Positions 1 to 52,470 of a DNA stretch of 64,000 nt are shown piece after piece; positions within the stretch are counted from its first letter, which is position 1; every line of letters begins with the position of its first letter. Location of the stretch: the IMG/VR virus record IMGVR_UViG_3300031578_000013, positions 12,162-76,161 of that record. One strand, written 5' to 3'. The notes under the pieces are model-generated. The model was given only the letters and a program-made list of their open reading frames with translations. It searched no databases and was not told where the DNA came from. Origin of the DNA: a virus. Position numbers and translations under genes: made by a program.

Positions 1-494
1 TATGCAAATTATCATGAGACCATCTTTATTTCTTTTATCTTTATGGAATTCAGATACGGATTTTGCACAATTGCACTTAGTACAGATTTTTATTCCATTT
101 ACCGCTCTTGGCATACTTACAATATTTGGATTCAAAATATATATAGTACGTCCCGACGATTTTACAGGAGTGAGAAAATTTAGAAAAAAATTTTTTTCGA
201 GGTGAAAATTGACCGGTACGTCCCGCCACTTTTGGGTGCACGTATCGACGCGCTCTGACCATTGGTTTCTTCTTAAAAGGGGGATGGGGGTACGGCCTTA
301 GTATTTTGATTAGAAGAAAAAAATTTTTAAATTTTTGAGGGTGCGTCCCTATTCGCACATCGGCCATAATTCCCACCGATCGCCATCTCAACAATTTTGC
401 CATTACAGGGTATATCGGTTAAGCACGGTTTTTCCGATGGACTACCAAAGATATCCCGGTTTTAATTGGCTTTTAGATTGTGTGGTTTTTTTGG

Positions 495-550
495 GGATAG
501 TTATATAAACTAGTAATAACATATTAGAAAGTGCCTAACAGGTTAAGGAG
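495..550 (+). promoter_or_regulatory. Archaeal TATA promoter, short 5' hairpin and SD for the early operon
   Basis: TTATATAA at 501-508, AT-rich AACATATTA downstream, hairpin CCT-AAC-AGG, then TAAGGAG before ATG 551. Confidence 0.65.
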
Positions 551-907
551 ATGAGAAAAATGCCGTACGCAATAACAAATGGAACGGAATGGTTAAGTGG
601 TGTAATTACCGCCGGTAAAACACGACCGATATTAACAAAGCTCACAGAACGCCGGTACGAGTACGACGACTATAACGCTGCTGATGACGTAATTACGGGA
701 TTATATCAAAACGGGTACGGCCCGGTAGCTACCACTCTGCGTATTGTACCGGTACGAACACTCTCACTTTTTGCCCGGATTACGCCCGGACTCGTAAACA
801 GATGTATTGTGATTGCGATATCCTGTGGGGAGCGGGAGCACCGTGGTACGGTCGCAAAGAACACAGTGGATATAGTATTCAGGTGTGATCATGTCAGTAC
901 TGGATAA
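551..907 (+). CDS. Hypothetical protein
   Basis: 118-aa ORF with AAGGAG SD, first gene after promoter. Confidence 0.6.
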   Translation: MRKMPYAITNGTEWLSGVITAGKTRPILTKLTERRYEYDDYNAADDVITGLYQNGYGPVATTLRIVPVRTLSLFARITPGLVNRCIVIAISCGEREHRGTVAKNTVDIVFRCDHVSTG

Positions 908-1346
908 AAGACAGGATATCGAACAGATTACCGATGCACTGCTATATGATGCAATGGGATCGCGGCGGTTTGTCCATGCAGTATGCAACGACCTGAACGC
1001 TTTTTCGGCCAATGTTGAGGATTACAAAGGGATCATCTATGCATGGGCTAACCGGCTATACATCGCTAATCAAATTGCGTATATTCTCACCTATTCGCAT
1101 AATGATGACTGCGATATGACCATTGTGCAGCTCAACGACACGGACCACTTAAACCACGGTGGGCATCTGATGAAGGATATTGCCCGGTGGTATAGGATGT
1201 TGGAATCAATTAAGTATAATTTGTTCTCTAACGGCGGGCAGGTTATGTTATGCCGTGAGGATATGGAGCGCCTTGATACTCTAATGAGCGTACTGAGCCG
1301 GGAAATAGTCGGAATGTATCAAAAGGAAAAAGGAAAGGTGAAATAA
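885..1346 (+). CDS. Hypothetical protein
   Basis: 153-aa ORF, AGGTG SD-like sequence, tightly packed. Confidence 0.7.
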   Translation: MIMSVLDKRQDIEQITDALLYDAMGSRRFVHAVCNDLNAFSANVEDYKGIIYAWANRLYIANQIAYILTYSHNDDCDMTIVQLNDTDHLNHGGHLMKDIARWYRMLESIKYNLFSNGGQVMLCREDMERLDTLMSVLSREIVGMYQKEKGKVK

Positions 1347-1348
1347 TT

Positions 1349-1702
1349 ATGAATTGGCTAAACGCAGTGCAGGAAGTAAAGAGAGATCATCAATTTTGTA
1401 TGATACACACCCCAACCGGCAACAAGGTAACAAAGAGAAAAACAAATTTCTATATCGATACATTAGAATCTATAGAAAATTTGGAGACTGAAGGATCTTC
1501 GGATAAAGCAATTTGCAAAATATTACCAACCGCAAAAAAGGTACTGAAAACCGATTGTGTGTTAATGGATGCTGTAACCGCAAATATGCTATGCTGTATC
1601 TACGATGCACTATCACCGGATAACCAAAAGAAATTCGCAGGATTTAAAATCGATTTTGCAGTAAAAACGGGATGGAAATTATACGAAAAATGCAAGGTGT
1701 GA
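1349..1702 (+). CDS. Hypothetical protein
   Basis: 117-aa ORF, AGGTGA SD. Confidence 0.7.
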   Translation: MNWLNAVQEVKRDHQFCMIHTPTGNKVTKRKTNFYIDTLESIENLETEGSSDKAICKILPTAKKVLKTDCVLMDAVTANMLCCIYDALSPDNQKKFAGFKIDFAVKTGWKLYEKCKV

Positions 1703-1848
1703 TCATGACTGAAGTATTGCAATACATCAGGAAAAACCGGGGCAGGTTGCCAAAGATGTTTCTGCCCTTCTCTCTGTTAAGAACATCACAGAGATCAGGA
1801 TAGTAAAGAGAGAAAAAGAAATATTCGTTTATTCGGGGAGTGAGTAAG

Positions 1849-2034
1849 ATGTCACAATTTATCTTGAAAATCAAGTTAGGCAATGAAGCAATGCTAACAG
1901 GTTATGACATTGCAGGCGCATTAAGAGAGATTGCCGATAAGGTAAATGATAATGAAGATATGAGAGAATTTTCAGGAGAAAAAAGGATACTGGATATTAA
2001 CGGTAATAGCGTTGGTACGTGGTCAGTAAAGTAA
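1849..2034 (+). CDS. Small hypothetical protein
   Basis: ORF ending in an ILDINGNSVGTW motif of the kind common in small phage proteins. Confidence 0.65.
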   Translation: MSQFILKIKLGNEAMLTGYDIAGALREIADKVNDNEDMREFSGEKRILDINGNSVGTWSVK

Positions 2035-2037
2035 ATC

Positions 2038-2103
2038 TACCCTCATAAACCTTTTAGGGTTTTTGCGTTCAATCGCATTGAGGGTATACCTGCGCAGGCA
2101 GGG
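2038..2103 (+). ncRNA. tRNA-like structured element copy 1 (closing stem, hairpin, T-loop arm, then 3' hairpin)
   Basis: TACCCTCA 2038-2045 pairs with TGAGGGTA 2079-2086; AAACCT/GGGTTT hairpin; TGCG-TTCAAT-CGCA; CCTGC-GCAG-GCAGG. Confidence 0.6.
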
Positions 2104-2124
2104 ATTAGAGGAGATGTAAAGACA

Positions 2125-3168
2125 ATGTTGGAAGTGTTTGTAATCTATCAGCATAGAAATATGCAGAAATTTGTATTCGGATATACAAAGGATGAAAAAA
2201 TCGCAGTATCCGAATTAATGCGATTGACGAATGAATCAAGCGAAAACCATTTTTCGATGGAATATAATTTCATCCCGTTTAATGGTGTATTGCTAAAGGA
2301 TAATTCACACAAATAAGGAGATGTAAAGTAATGCAAGCAAAAACCAGATATTCGGTAAATGTGATGGATCTCACAAAAGACGATGTCTTAAGCACCTTTA
2401 TGATCGCGCCGGTGATTCAATCACGAATAATTGTAGATGTTGAAAAAGGGCGCATTGATGGTAAAGCAGTGGTGCTTGATTGTCCTGAAGAGCAAGCATT
2501 AGCGATAATTGAGATCATCCATCAGAAGTATGGGAAAAATGAATTCAGATGCTATAAGGGCACAAAGAGGATTTAACCATGCCAAAAACAATTAAAATTT
2601 CAATCATCCAAGATGAGATCAATCGACTACTATCACTGGATAACATCGACGAACAAACCAAAATTACCCTTTGTAATTTCATCGAAAAAATCCTTATGGA
2701 TACCAAAAACTATAAGGGTTTTAATCACATCGACTGGTCAAACGGAGGTTTCGATCAATGGGAAAAAGACGGCGAACCGGGGTTTCCTGAAAAATCAAAA
2801 TATCTCGGAAGGGAATATTCAAGGGTATATTACAAAAGTGAGAAGTTGATTTAACCATGTCACAAATTACCACTCACAGAAAATCCCTTTTTGATATCTC
2901 ATTACGGGATATCCAATTAGACAAACATATGATAGTGATACGAGAAATAGAACCGGCGTATAATGATTCGTTCGCATATTACCTTTGTACAATTAGGGAA
3001 ATTCATAATCCAGAAAGTAAAGACCCTGTAGTATGTGTCTGGATTAAGGCTATGTCTTTTGACGATAAAAGATGGTATAAATCATCATCCACATTAGCAT
3101 GGTTTAGAGCATCAAAAATATTGAGGATTGATAATAATCTTCAATATGAATTATTACCGGAGCCCTGA
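2125..3168 (+). other. Four coupled small hypothetical genes (2125-2316, 2331-2576, 2579-2854, 2857-3168)
   Basis: Consecutive ORFs with 2-14 nt gaps; GGAGATG SD before the first two. Confidence 0.7.
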
Positions 3169-3373
3169 TCATTATGCAAAAACAGAAAGGTGAATAACAA
3201 TGATGAAAATGGAGCGACCAATATCATACAAAGCAGCGGTATCCGAAAAACGATCACTAATGAGATGTGGTATAAAATGTCACGTAATTGAATCAAAAAT
3301 ATTTAATTTGGATTACTTATACAATCGTAATGAACCTCAATGGATATCCACCTACATGGTACAATTATTATAA

Positions 3374-3433
3374 TCCCATTTTTACATCGGTAATAGCGTT
3401 CAATCGCAAAATGGGAATACCCTGTAATGGGGT
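3374..3433 (+). ncRNA. tRNA-like structured element copy 2
   Basis: TCCCATTT 3374-3381 pairs with AAATGGGA 3409-3416; TTAC-ATCG-GTAA hairpin; GCG-TTCAAT-CGC; ACCCT/GGGGT hairpin. Confidence 0.6.
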
Positions 3434-3451
3434 TAAGGGAGATGTCAGACT

Positions 3452-6400
3452 ATGAGAAACACAAAAAAACTGGATGCTCTATTAATCGAAAAATCGGTTA
3501 ATATGGCACGCCGAAAAGGAGACGAATATAACGGTTTCCTTTTTGCACAAATGAATACAGCGCGTTTAACCGATGCTGAAAGAAGATCCTGCAATGTGTA
3601 TCTATTCGGTGCAATGTGGGATAGGATGACCATTGAAGATTTGAAGGCATTACCATGATGCAAATATCATCAACCCGAAAAAACATTGCTATGGTTGTGT
3701 TTACCATTGGTGATACAATCCATTTTACACCACTGGACAAATACAACCCTAATGTAATGGATGCAAAAGCACCGGTGTTCGATGGAACTTTTGATGACTG
3801 CGTGACATTCATTTCAGAGGTTTTATAATGGATGCCTATTTCACAACTTGTAAAGATGCTGGTCGCACTGCATACCTGTTAGGGCCATTCACCACAGAAA
3901 AAGCATGTAAAGTATTTGCAGAATTCCCGGAGGATAACCCAGAATCCAGGCACACTGAAATATATGATGCATGTTGTGAGATTGATCGCAAGGCGCACTT
4001 TTTCGCATATGGTATGTGTCGAGTAAGGGATTTTAAACCGGGTGAAATAACCGGGATTTTGAATAGAGTTGATAAAGAGAAATGGGATAAGGTGTTAGGA
4101 TGACGTTCGATAAAGTAATACCATATCGTTGCTCAACTGGGTGCAAGCCCTTTATGCTAGCAACAAACATCAATGCACCAATTTGTCCAACGTGTAAAGA
4201 TCCGATGACACGATCAAAAGAGCATTTTGCACAAAAGAGGAGATATTACCATGTTGATTAATTACGCTATCCGAGATATCAATACGGGAAAATATTACCG
4301 TCATCCAAAAACCGATGTAACCGGCGAACGACTAGAGTTGGTATCTGGTATAAACCGGGCTATGACATGGGTACAATCAGATGATGGAGAACCACGTACA
4401 GCCCGCTATGTAATCTGTCATCATAACCTAATCGGTTGTGAAATTGTAGCATGTTATGAACATGAAAATCTTAAGAAAGGGAGATTGTATAACCGGGAAG
4501 TTAAGGGAGTTGTATCATGACCACAATTCCTGAAAAAGAATGGAAAAAGATACAAACTCTATCTGATACTATCAAACGTAAAGTATGGGAGATTGAGAAC
4601 GATATAGAAAATCTGGATAACCTCTTACACGCTTTACATGGAGAAGGTATTAGAAACCGAAAATATACCACGAGTGGTTATCCGCAGGTATTTCAAAATG
4701 GGGAATGGGTTGATCGGTGATGGGATCATGATAGAATTCGCAGATAACAAAACAGGTAAAACCATTATGGTATCCCATGCAGAATCCTTCAAGTACGGCT
4801 CTGAAAATCAAAGACGTTTTGCGGATAAGATATCTGCAAAATATATCCTGATAACAGGAGACAATAGAGGGCGATTGCCACTATGGACAAAGCGTATCTT
4901 GAAGGAGAATAATCTTTGGTATAGAAAGATAGGGCGCACCACGTATAAGAGTAATACTTTTGCGTTGTATGACGAGAGGATGAAACCATGAATCAAGTAT
5001 TCAAAGATATTGATGCTATCCTTACTGAATACAAAGTAAAAGGATTCAAAGTAACTGATGGTGAAATGATCGCTATAAGGAAAAACCATCTTTGGTATTA
5101 TTTCAGATGGAATTGCAAAGAAAATGGATTAATGCTATCGGGTGAAACTGATCGTTATGAAAGGAGATGGTAAAACAATGACCCCAGAAGAAATTGCAAA
5201 AAACAAAAGATTGCAAGATACGCAATGGAACAAACAACCAATACCGGATAAATTCGATATGCAGGGGATAATCAAATACCTGCACGAATACTCAGGGAGA
5301 ATCCCCAACGAGAACGAATGTTTACGATTCAATATGTTTCTTGAATCATTCCAGGGGAAACCATCAGAGCGGGAATGCTCTGATTTCTTACAGGTATTGG
5401 GGATGGTTAAGAAATGACCCCCTCCAAAAAATCCCTACTCAACCTCTTCAAAGCAAACACCGGCAAAACACAACTCAGAGTGCCACAGATTGATGAGCGG
5501 AGGATAGTATTGCAAGGGTGGCAGAATAGCAAGGTAAAGAATTATAGGAAGTGGTGATGATGAAAATTACAAAAGATGGATACTTTAAAAAAGGCGCATT
5601 TAAACTGGGTGTAAACCCAACAATGATCGGACAGAAGATCATACACGTTGATCGGTGTGAAACTCCATACGGTTATGATGGATCTTATTGCACGATTGCT
5701 GGAATAGGAATTCCACAAAATCCAAAATATGAATATGTGATCTTGAGAGAAATTTGTAAGGATAGATCACTCGTGATTGAATGGAATCCCCGCATATTCC
5801 CGGGCGAATTATCCAGATTAGAACCGTGGTGGAATGATGGCAAATGGGTTTTGCTAGAGAGTATAGTATGACCCTCTCCCACTTTGCAAAATCCTATCTC
5901 CATCTCCAGGGTGTCGAACTCCTAAAACCGCGAGAGAGAAGCAAACCCGTTGGGGATAGACAGGGTGAGACTATGATTAAGGTTGATCAATGTGAAAGGG
6001 GAGATTTATCATGAATATTGAAATTGGTTGCATTGACAAATACGATGCTATGGAAAAATTCGGAAATGACGAGATTGACATTCTATTCCGCACATGGAAC
6101 GAACAAAGAAATCGGATGACCGGGTGGAGATCATTCCAAAAAGTATGCAAAACTATTGCCAGTCCAGTATGGCCGTGGGAATATCCATGTTCACAAGTTG
6201 AATGGAAATATGTGAGGGTATCATGACCGATTTATCAGATGTCGAAATACACTTGTATGTAGAGTGTGTTAAGATGAACTACTCAAAAGAACAATCCGAG
6301 AACTTCTTTAAGAGTGTGGATGAGACGATTAACTTCGAATTTCTTAACATCTTACGAGAACAGTATGGGAAGGAGAGGTTATGAAACCAGAAACCAATGA

Positions 6401-7240: not shown

Positions 7241-7630
7241 ATGAGAATGAATCTTAAACAAGCCAATAAAATCTCTAAAAGATTATCATCACAGTATGGG
7301 ATTATCAATCCTCCCGTGGTGCAATCTTTACCATATTCCAGGATGGGAAAGAAAGTAATACTTGGGTATTACGATAACCTTGCAAATCAGATAGAGATAA
7401 ACAAGTATGCTTTGGAATTGTGGAACGCCCAACAAATCACCGATACCATAAAGCACGAGTTGATGCACGCCAGATGTTATCAGGACTTCGGGCATGGTGG
7501 ACACGGAAAGCAATTTGGGTTACTATGTGATTTGTATGAATTAACCAATGATATTAAAAGAGCAATCAAGCGACCACACGTATACCACATTAACAAAAAA
7601 GCACTACTGGAAATGCGAAGGGTGATTTGA
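7241..7630 (+). CDS. SprT-like zinc metalloprotease
   Basis: TIKHELMH (HExxH) followed by HGKQF; LGYY upstream; TATA-like GTATAAAT at 7205. Confidence 0.75.
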   Translation: MRMNLKQANKISKRLSSQYGIINPPVVQSLPYSRMGKKVILGYYDNLANQIEINKYALELWNAQQITDTIKHELMHARCYQDFGHGGHGKQFGLLCDLYELTNDIKRAIKRPHVYHINKKALLEMRRVI

Positions 7631-51363: not shown

Positions 51364-52470
51364 ATGACACAAACTTACGAACCATTAACAACAACCCGCG
51401 AGGAACGTGGTGAAGCCATCGCAAAACAGAACGGTCAGATTGCGCGACTTGATGACAACCATTACGCAGTTAAATCCCAATCGGGAAATGGAATTTATGA
51501 AGTAATGCAGACAGAGATCGGATGGAGATGCACATGCCCCGACCATCAAACACGCGGCGTAGAATGTAAACATATCATCTCCGTGAAATTAAGCTTTGCG
51601 ATAAGAAAACACATTGAGAAAATCCGGATTGCACCGGTTAATTCAACGGCTGATATATGCGTATTCTGTGGTTCATCTCTCATTGTAAAGGACGGGGTGC
51701 GGCACAACCAATACGGCGACATACAGGTTTTCTACTGTAAGGAATGTAATCAGCACTTCACCTTAAACGCAGGATTCGAGGGTATGAAAACATTACCGCA
51801 GGATATTACAAGCGCGATGCAGCTCTACTTTAGCGGACTATCATTCAGGAATGTTACCAAGGCGCTCAAACTGCGTGGTGTAAATGTCTCTCACGTTGCT
51901 GTCTACAAGTGGATTAACAAATACACAACCCTGATGGAGCAATACATCGAGAAGATCCAACCTCAGGTATCCGACACATGGAGAGCGGATGAGATTTACA
52001 TTAAGATCAAGGGTAATATGAAATACGTTTTCGCCGTGATGGATGATGAGACCAGATACTGGATCGCACAGGAAGTAGCGGGTTCAAAATTCAAGCACGA
52101 CGCAGCAAAGATTTTCCGAGATGCACGGGAAATTACAGGAAAGAGGCCGAACGTCCTAATCACCGACGGACTCAAAGCTTATCACGATGCGTTTAATCAG
52201 GAATTTTTCCAAATGGCTCACCCCCAATCAAAACATATCAACGCGATTAAGATAACTGGCCATGCGAGTGATGCGAACAATAACAAGATGGAAAGAATCA
52301 ACGGAGAAATCCGAGATAGGGAAAAGACAATGCGCGGCCTAAAGAAAGTCGATACAAAGGTTCTTCCCGGTATGCAGATTTATCATAACTTCATCCGGGG
52401 TCACGAAGCCCTAAAGGGTATGACACCCGCAGAGGCATGTGGAATTGTGGTTGAAGGAGATAATAAGTAG
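51364..52470 (+). CDS. tnpA: IS6-family DDE transposase with N-terminal SWIM finger and Zn ribbon
   Basis: CTCPD..CKH, CVFC/CKEC, GLSFR HTH, WRADE, ITDG, MER, HNFIR.H, TPAE. Confidence 0.92.
   Translation: MTQTYEPLTTTREERGEAIAKQNGQIARLDDNHYAVKSQSGNGIYEVMQTEIGWRCTCPDHQTRGVECKHIISVKLSFAIRKHIEKIRIAPVNSTADICVFCGSSLIVKDGVRHNQYGDIQVFYCKECNQHFTLNAGFEGMKTLPQDITSAMQLYFSGLSFRNVTKALKLRGVNVSHVAVYKWINKYTTLMEQYIEKIQPQVSDTWRADEIYIKIKGNMKYVFAVMDDETRYWIAQEVAGSKFKHDAAKIFRDAREITGKRPNVLITDGLKAYHDAFNQEFFQMAHPQSKHINAIKITGHASDANNNKMERINGEIRDREKTMRGLKKVDTKVLPGMQIYHNFIRGHEALKGMTPAEACGIVVEGDNK

Follow-up and report, generated by a model that had tools for sequence, protein, structure and literature searches.

The DNA analyzed here, referred to as the window, comprises 64 kb (bases 12162-76161) of a 76-kb uncultured virus record in the IMG/VR database. 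Near its beginning lies an early operon, a row of small and tightly packed open reading frames (ORFs) on the plus strand that begins near position 551, downstream of a 400-nt repeat-bearing gap. Within the first 4 kb of this row, two inter-ORF gaps, 2035-2124 and 3374-3451, stand out as structured, and each carries one copy of an RNA element, designated E1 and E2, respectively; a third inter-ORF gap (1703-1839) gave no comparable fold. The best explanation of the observations described below is that E1 and E2 both represent one conserved, cis-acting RNA module, which belongs to an uncatalogued family and punctuates the early polycistronic message. The positions of all features are collected in Table 1.

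The 12-mer GCGTTCAATCGC was found exactly twice in the window, at 2065-2076 and 3396-3407, in both cases on the plus strand, in agreement with an original prediction, made from the sequence alone, of a shared GCG-TTCAAT-CGC core. In 64 kb, the recurrence of a 12-mer is in itself unremarkable, and the support comes from the structure that surrounds it. By RNAfold, E1 and E2 adopt an identical three-way-junction topology, in which a closing stem encloses hairpin 1 and hairpin 2, the latter carrying the UUCAAU loop. The core fold of E1 reached -18.9 kcal/mol (z -4.33), a value attained by none of 200 shuffles, and that of E2 reached -12.0 kcal/mol (z -2.88), equalled by two of 200. In the alignment of the two copies, 91% of cells pair and six pairs are compensatory, of which the closing stem contributes four and hairpin 1 two; this combination of pairing and covariation was matched by 7 of 500 shuffles, and slid registers reached at most two double-changed pairs. 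The claim that the remaining stems differ in sequence and still pair thus holds for the stems as originally written. Each junction follows a TAA stop codon, with 3 nt (E1) or 0 nt (E2) between the stop and the first paired base. Behind it lie a second hairpin and the Shine-Dalgarno (SD) sequence GGAGATG, again as predicted; from the last paired base to the next ATG there are 38 nt (E1) and 35 nt (E2). Of the bounds first given to the elements, 2038-2103 and 3374-3433, the starts were correct, while the ends included the second hairpin, the junctions themselves ending at 2086 and 3416. Using a covariance model built from E1 and E2 (R1), the two copies, with 70 and 57 bits, were the only ones in the 76-kb record. 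For the whole E2 region, the lowest-energy fold pairs 3371-3380 with 3426-3435 and leaves the junction unclosed, and this predicted pairing may represent an alternative conformer of E2.

Table 1. Positions of E1, E2 and associated features in the window, and of related sites in other viral contigs
Feature	Position	Strand	Description
TATA-like box	501..508	+	TTATATAA; putative archaeal promoter ahead of the early operon, read from sequence
First early gene leader	531..562	+	GUG, weak CCU-AAC-AGG hairpin 534-544, UUAAGGAGAUG, SD GGAGAUG 547-553, ATG 560; without three-way junction
TAA stop upstream of E1	2032..2034	+	Ends ORF 1840/1849-2034; 3 nt before E1
E1 three-way junction	2038..2086	+	Closing stem TACCCTCA 2038-2045 / TGAGGGTA 2079-2086, 8 bp
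E1 hairpin 1	2047-2052 / 2057-2062	+	AAACCT / GGGTTT, loop 2053-2056; last pair U-G
E1 hairpin 2	2064-2067 / 2074-2077	+	Loop UUCAAU 2068-2073
E1 downstream module	2087..2127	+	Tail UA 2087-2088, second hairpin CCUGC-GCAG-GCAGG 2089-2102, SD GGAGAUG 2110-2116, ATG 2125
TAA stop upstream of E2	3371..3373	+	Ends ORF 3200-3373; directly adjoins E2
E2 three-way junction	3374..3416	+	Closing stem TCCCATTT 3374-3381 / AAATGGGA 3409-3416, 8 bp
E2 hairpin 1	3382-3385 / 3390-3393	+	TTAC / GTAA, loop 3386-3389
E2 hairpin 2	3396-3398 / 3405-3407	+	Loop UUCAAU 3399-3404
E2 downstream module	3417..3454	+	Tail AU 3417-3418, second hairpin ACCCU-GUAAU-GGGGU 3419-3433, SD GGAGAUG 3438-3444, ATG 3452
Divergent slot-fillers in related strains	L264:960-1009; L260:752-802; L263:542-590; L269:611-659
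Second leader class in phage-type contigs	L148:4560-4660, 4940-5040, 5770-5870, 7490-7595; L149:7360-7460; L107:5760-5860		More similar to ribonuclease III sites

Relatives of the two elements were sought by scanning IMG/VR for the core 13-mer. The matches were mostly unrelated DNA, and model R1 singled out the contigs that carry the full architecture; in this set, second copies were also recognized in which the seed word is missing and the stem of hairpin 2 is compensated (GAC/GUC, CCCG/CGGG and ACCG/CGGU). The loose patterns TNGCGTTCAATCGCA and GTTCAATCN{6,8}GGGNATAY also gave mostly unrelated DNA, and only model-confirmed matches were used. A second covariance model (R2) was built from 12 copies of this GC-rich, or phage-type, subfamily, with the window copies left out; 95.9% of cells pair in its alignment, and none of 500 shuffles was as good. 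When R2 was run over the 64-kb window with filters off, E2 was ranked first (19.1 bits, E 0.0044) and E1 second (14.5 bits, E 0.088). Application of R2 to whole records detected eight copies within the initial 8 kb of a 21-kb contig, six in another contig, four in a 95-kb genome of 99% completeness, two in a 36%-GC virus (G008) and one in a terminally repetitive genome of 44 kb. A structure-aware pattern matched 103 viral contigs, and only two matches were obtained in prokaryote genomes (one per species, 185,579 species), where the family is thus essentially absent.

Over the pattern-found loci, R2 identified 130 copies of the GC-rich subfamily, of which 95 are distinct. Among the distinct copies, 96.2% of cells are paired and 279 cells are changed on both sides, a result that none of 500 shuffles equalled. 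The common layout consists of the closing stem P1 (CCC../..GGG; 7 bp plus a bulged C), a small P2, an invariant UG, a covarying P3 around UUCAAU, an A and an ACUR tail, followed by a hairpin. The three modelled pairs of hairpin 2 (P3) are paired in 100% of cells with free sequence, and its loop reads UUCAAU in 94 of the 95 copies and UUCGAU in one, the letters set by the search patterns (CCCC, C-R..T..G.Y-GTG, TTCAAT and GGG) being invariant partly by construction. Second copies found by the model alone also carry UUCAAU, and both the covarying pairs and the 3' tail are free of the pattern constraint. In this tail, A is found in 85 and C in 93 of the 95 copies, followed by a position that is almost never C and then by a purine, making the tail more conserved than the 5' flank. 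The loop of hairpin 1 ends in R-G, with an invariant G (pattern-fixed in the pattern-found copies) whose nominal partner is C in 51, U in 39 and another letter in five copies; neither this G nor the loop C varies among the copies. Watson-Crick pairing between the loops of hairpins 1 and 2 was rejected since the column counts do not fit. An AUUGAA loop was also sought in the phage contigs as a kissing partner, and the sole candidate was dropped as part of a long ordinary hairpin.

The phage-type copies are uniform in their orientation and position. Every copy is co-oriented with the genes, and one of its pairs is U-G in 39 of the 95 sequences; as the opposite strand would read an A-C mismatch there, the fold belongs to the gene strand. 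In 91 of 106 distinct contexts the model match begins 1-10 nt after the upstream stop (mode 3), and the distance to the next start codon is mostly 36-47 nt, with SD and ATG at that distance in the apparent exceptions as well. A second hairpin of at least 6 bp follows the junction in 59 of 97 contexts, compared with 11 of 485 shuffles; its place is taken in other lineages by a GNRA mini-hairpin or a spacer rich in CA. An early operon of 8 kb, served by a single TTGACA promoter, contains as many as eight copies. These findings bear out the prediction that E1 and E2 are homologous, covarying sense-strand RNA structures at cistron boundaries.

In the window, ORF 1840-2034, the E1 spacer and ORF 2125-2316 share one reading frame, interrupted only by the TAA at 2032-2034. 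This is probably due to chance, because the E2 spacer carries an in-frame TAA at 3425. Stop-codon readthrough was ruled out by the same TAA and by phage-type spacings that are not multiples of three.

The phage-type contigs contain, in addition, a second class of intercistronic leader, made up of a GNRA-capped hairpin catggcGCAAgccatg, a long hairpin of 14-19 bp and an SD inside a small hairpin (Table 1). In virus G008, the junctions (L150:3635-3730 and 4651-4745) are followed by a conserved TTTAACTAATTAT box without a second hairpin; from its sequence, this box is possibly a promoter.

The AT-rich subfamily to which E1 and E2 belong was examined by a metagenome scan for the window-type core plus tail, which gave 13 contigs, R1-confirmed copies being taken to E 1e-5. 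It comprises 12 distinct sequences, E1 and E2 included, from related soil contigs; in 10 pairs of its alignment both partners have changed, which none of 500 shuffles equalled, and all variants adopt this junction fold with a CC..GG hairpin behind it. In contrast to the phage type, the window copies are AT-rich and have an 8-bp closing stem without the bulged C and a longer or looser hairpin 1, whose length is not constant across E1, E2 and their strain variants. An additional C behind 3374, which corresponds to the phage-type bulged C, is present in some strains, and some have an 8-nt insert in the loop of E2 hairpin 1. Contigs from four soil runs were then aligned over 1800-3700. Loose ends and joints of the strain mosaics were located at 2034/2035, 2090/2091, 3374/3375 and 3419/3420, and different genes flank one and the same junction. 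The block downstream of E1 is exchanged for other CC..GG hairpins with the same SD kept, and in a strain variant of E2 an alternative second hairpin, UCCCCAGGUUGGGGA, is followed by the same SD. As the joints coincide with the element borders, the junction is an independent module, and the second hairpin and SD go with the downstream gene.

The same joints might reflect a repeat acting at the DNA level, at which early genes are shuffled by recombination between cassette boundaries, as for the T4 PeSL regulatory cassettes or integron attC sites. The contigs of the four soil runs do break and rejoin exactly at the borders of the elements, with differing genes on either side, and read depth on the elements is 2-4 times that on the flanks. 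A DNA element would, however, leave unexplained the strand-specific pairing with its 39 U-G pairs, the gene orientation of all copies and their fixed position relative to stop and start codons; moreover, the stems covary while the sequence drifts, which lowers DNA homology. An attC-like site was rejected on the same U-G pairs and orientation, and also because the conserved letters lie in the inner loop and no attC-like core is conserved at the stem base. Exchange at a shared regulatory sequence is an expected by-product. We regard the DNA-level reading as the least probable of those considered.

The carriers of the element are diverse. The 95-kb carrier, a myovirus, encodes sheath, portal and terminase proteins and a PolA-type polymerase; its early operon is preceded by a TTGACA promoter with palindromic operators, and its helicase finds its best matches, at about 34%, in Arthrobacter phages. 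Among the large ORFs of the window virus, no recognizable head-tail genes were detected. This virus has T-run gene ends and TATA-like boxes, and encodes an IS6-type transposase (51364-52470) that is 79-83% identical to proteins on contigs of 58-511 kb, one of them (79%) named as a Methanoregula metagenome-assembled genome; matches at 62-68% are named Candidatus Methanoperedens, and the atlas protein clusters are archaeal. Judged from these sequence features, the host of the window virus is likely to be archaeal and methanogen-like. No protein common to all carriers was detected by all-against-all BLASTP of the carrier genomes. G008 alone shares proteins with the window virus, namely a 352-aa protein and a methylase, and this AT-rich virus with a GC-type element represents a bridging form between the two subfamilies. 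In 50,697 phage records no DNA match was found for the window or a carrier contig, and protein matches to cultured relatives were at most about 36% identical; a PrimPol search for close kin of the window virus gave three fragments, none of them with the element.

Upstream of the first early gene, the position of the TATA-like box suggests a transcription start near G531. The leader of this gene (531-553) had been likened to what a cut on the 3' side of each element would leave. The likeness is valid for the layout, in which CCU-AAC-AGG is followed by UUAAGGAGAUG and the SD; the 3-bp hairpin is no better than shuffles by RNAfold (z 0.28). The first early ORF is listed from ATG 551, and its true start is probably ATG 560, because ATG 551 forms the last three letters of GGAGATG, the ribosome-binding motif that recurs here; the SD-to-ATG spacing is 6 nt at ATG 560, in line with the 7-8 nt at other GGAGATG sites. 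Within positions 1-6000, sigma-70-like promoters and intrinsic terminators showed no excess over shuffles, and no plus-strand terminator-like site was detected. In the gap ahead of the operon (146-328), GTACGTCCCG..TTTT occurs three times at intervals of about 70 nt, and the palindromic box AGAAAAAAATTTTT twice; by their sequence, these may be an origin or binding sites of a regulator.

Comparison with known RNA classes gave no match. Rfam 15 had nothing at gathering thresholds in the whole window and nothing at E<=10 over the elements or the phage-type copies, and ARAGORN detected no tRNA genes in the window and the carrier loci. Neither E1 nor E2 is followed by a T run, as expected of an intrinsic or archaeal oligo-T terminator, and the longest helix, of 8 bp, falls short of the about two turns of double-stranded RNA of a ribonuclease (RNase) III site. 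Covarying homologues, on which the original prediction depended, are abundant, and no known Rfam family or terminator accounts for E1 and E2. No published description of the family was found in word searches of the literature. A catalogue based on IMG/VR lists 10,006 candidate structured RNAs (PMC10690425), and the present family may be among its unnamed candidates.

Small ribozymes are common in phage DNA, and the element could be a small ribozyme of a new self-cleaving class, or a cutter of another kind that needs no host factor. In bacterial and archaeal viruses it would serve as an insulator and free each cistron, comparable to the synthetic RiboJ insulator, in which a ribozyme and a hairpin are placed ahead of the ribosome-binding site. 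Its presence in viruses of apparently different host domains with almost no shared proteins would then be understandable, as would a three-way junction of about 45 nt with few invariant unpaired letters (the bulged C, UG, UUCAAU, A and the AC tail), often with a hairpin and a ribosome-binding site next to it. The known self-cleaving ribozymes (hammerhead, twister, twister-sister, pistol, hatchet and HDV-like) gave, however, no Rfam match at E<=10, and a hammerhead core is excluded because the junction strands are only 0-2 nt long. The conserved set of letters also shrinks once both subfamilies and the loop variants AUCAUUC and CUCAAC are compared, and the subfamilies do not share a conserved tail, where a cut would be likely. 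We therefore consider a ribozyme improbable.

We then considered the enzymes of tRNA maturation. RNA transcribed from the gene strand folds into a compact three-way junction directly behind the upstream stop codon, which precedes a tail of 2-4 nt, a small hairpin, the SD and the next start codon. In the proposed pathway, RNase Z would cut on the 3' side of the junction, with or without RNase P at the 5' side. The upstream message would keep a folded 3' cap, and the downstream message would begin with a hairpin-plus-SD leader like that of the promoter-proximal gene. A cut on the 3' side fits both the tail, more conserved than the 5' flank, and the mosaic break between tail and second hairpin. 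As the carriers, a probably archaeal soil virus and bacterial myophages, share almost no proteins, a host factor of universal occurrence is the most likely reader of the element; a reader protein encoded by all of the viruses was rejected by the BLASTP comparison above. A universal reader is further suggested by the occurrence of the element only between cistrons, its absence from cellular genomes and from the promoter-proximal leader, and its conservation across protein-disjoint viruses.

The tRNA T arm is read by RNase P, RNase Z, the CCA-adding enzyme and the T-arm modification enzymes, and to our knowledge it is the only universally recognized UUCRA loop on a stem. The U-U-C-R-A sequence of T-loops is present in E1, E2 and the 95 distinct GC-type copies, in the latter with TTCAAT fixed by the search pattern. 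Like the T arm and tRNA-like domains (tmRNA, YrlA, mascRNA and the tRNA-like structures of plant viruses), the element has UUCAA closed by a Watson-Crick stem, and the conserved 3' R-G of the neighbouring hairpin 1 might be comparable to G18-G19 of the tRNA D loop, which form the elbow. An acceptor-like stem of about 7 bp at an mRNA boundary, as in the tRNA-like signals called t-elements, is also present, with 8 bp in E1 and E2 and 7 bp plus the bulged C in the phage type. In plant mitochondria, t-elements direct RNase Z and RNase P cuts at mRNA ends (PMC1920247), and the t-element of Haloferax volcanii 5S rRNA is cut by tRNase Z and RNase P (PMC4326828). With these t-elements and with the tRNA punctuation of mitochondria, the family shares a small RNA of stem plus arms at cistron boundaries, the acceptor-like stem of 7-8 bp and the UUCRA loop, and its proposed use, the making of mRNA ends by host RNase Z and RNase P, would be the same. 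In contrast to them, it has no anticodon arm, has a 6-nt loop with a free closing pair, is invisible to tRNA models, and is found in prokaryote viruses, with up to eight copies per operon. That the message is cut, by which enzyme and at which site, is our inference. We assign a probability of roughly 0.4 to a punctuation signal cut by the tRNA-maturation enzymes; the originally proposed release of decoy mini-tRNAs is as conjectural as cleavage by RNase Z or RNase P.

A number of observations weigh against such cutting, and the tRNA reading of the element is only partly supported. The 7-nt loop, 5-bp stem and fixed G53-C61 pair of a T arm are lacking: the loop of hairpin 2 has 6 nt, its stem 3-4 bp, and its closing pair is GC in 38, AU in 29 and CG in 28 copies. 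A linker of 1-2 nt separates hairpin 2 from the closing stem, and it is hairpin 1, not hairpin 2, that is contiguous with this stem. The element thus differs from the T arm and the tRNA-like domains in loop size, closing pair, stem length and stacking topology, and no member of the Rfam tRNA clan (RF00005) matched; both tRNA covariance models and ARAGORN are blind to it even at E<=10. Hence, of the mini-tRNA or T-loop label originally given to the elements, the UUCAA of a T-loop stands, while the rest of the arm does not. In the same slot, related strains carry a CUCAAC loop, or AUCAUUC on GCGCG/CGCGC without a clear hairpin 1 (Table 1), which a strict T-loop reader would not tolerate. The tail differs between the subfamilies, ACUR in the phage type and (U/A)AU(A/G) in the window type, part of the letter invariance is due to the search patterns, as noted above, and the archaeal host is read from one transposase and from the appearance of promoters and terminators.

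Some of these observations would be accommodated by a passive stability module, with the junction as a 3' cap and the second hairpin as a 5' cap. A general endonuclease, namely RNase E, Y or J in bacteria and aCPSF or an RNase J-type enzyme in archaea, would then cut in the short single-stranded tail or in the A- or CA-rich spacer, or exonucleases would simply stop at the structures; UUCAAU would serve internal folding, for example by docking on the CCC/GGG stem or the bulged C, and not tRNA mimicry. The compact architecture with its conserved CCC/GGG and bulged C, the gain of the same extra C in an E2 strain variant, the single-stranded, A- or CA-rich spacers behind the junction in many lineages, the tolerance of the slot for other loops and the failure of the tRNA features are all in line with this explanation. 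A plain cap would not, however, require six loop letters to stay unchanged across 95 distinct copies from two widely differing groups of viruses, and ordinary hairpins fill that role elsewhere in the same phages. A passive cap is accordingly judged unlikely, while deserving consideration.

The fixed position of the junction, 1-10 nt from the upstream stop and 35-47 nt from the next start, is also what would be expected of an element acting in translation without any cleavage, either as an insulator or standby site that resets ribosome loading or as an operator for a conserved host protein, ribosomal or other, that recognizes UUCAAU. Ribosomes that terminate at the stop would open the closing stem by melting its 5' strand, hairpins bound by proteins typically combine an invariant loop with a stem of free sequence, the SD lies in its own small hairpin in the phage subfamily, and the full-length fold of E2 offers an alternative pairing with the second hairpin. 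The junction is, however, too distant from the SD for occlusion, the first gene of the operon does without it, in G008 it precedes a promoter-like box and not an SD leader, and no viral protein is shared. These points place a role in translation slightly behind the passive cap, and likewise as unlikely.

The arrangement proposed for the cutting signal resembles that of the T7 early genes, and of SP82/SPO1-type phages, in which RNase III sites lie between genes. In both cases, a long early message from one promoter carries a structured element in nearly every intercistronic gap, and the expected products have a 3' hairpin and a defined 5' leader. The family differs from the T7 sites in lacking the double-stranded stem of about 20 bp, its helix being 8 bp, or at most about 14 bp if stacked, and in forming a three-way junction with a conserved loop.

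The structure, covariation, strand, position, family and modular strain exchange of the element altogether establish a well-supported new family of structured RNA with more than 100 distinct sequences, not represented in Rfam, which is suited for an Rfam entry and for structure determination. If the element is a cutting signal, viruses of prokaryotes use a mode of punctuation that has hitherto been described in mitochondria, in plant organelles and in a single haloarchaeal rRNA operon. An RNA of 45 nt would then work in very distant hosts, methanogens among them, and would provide a compact and portable part with which the genes of a single transcript could be separated. In uncultured viruses the element would further serve as a marker of early operons, and it would offer a handle on the recruitment of host tRNA enzymes into viral gene expression.

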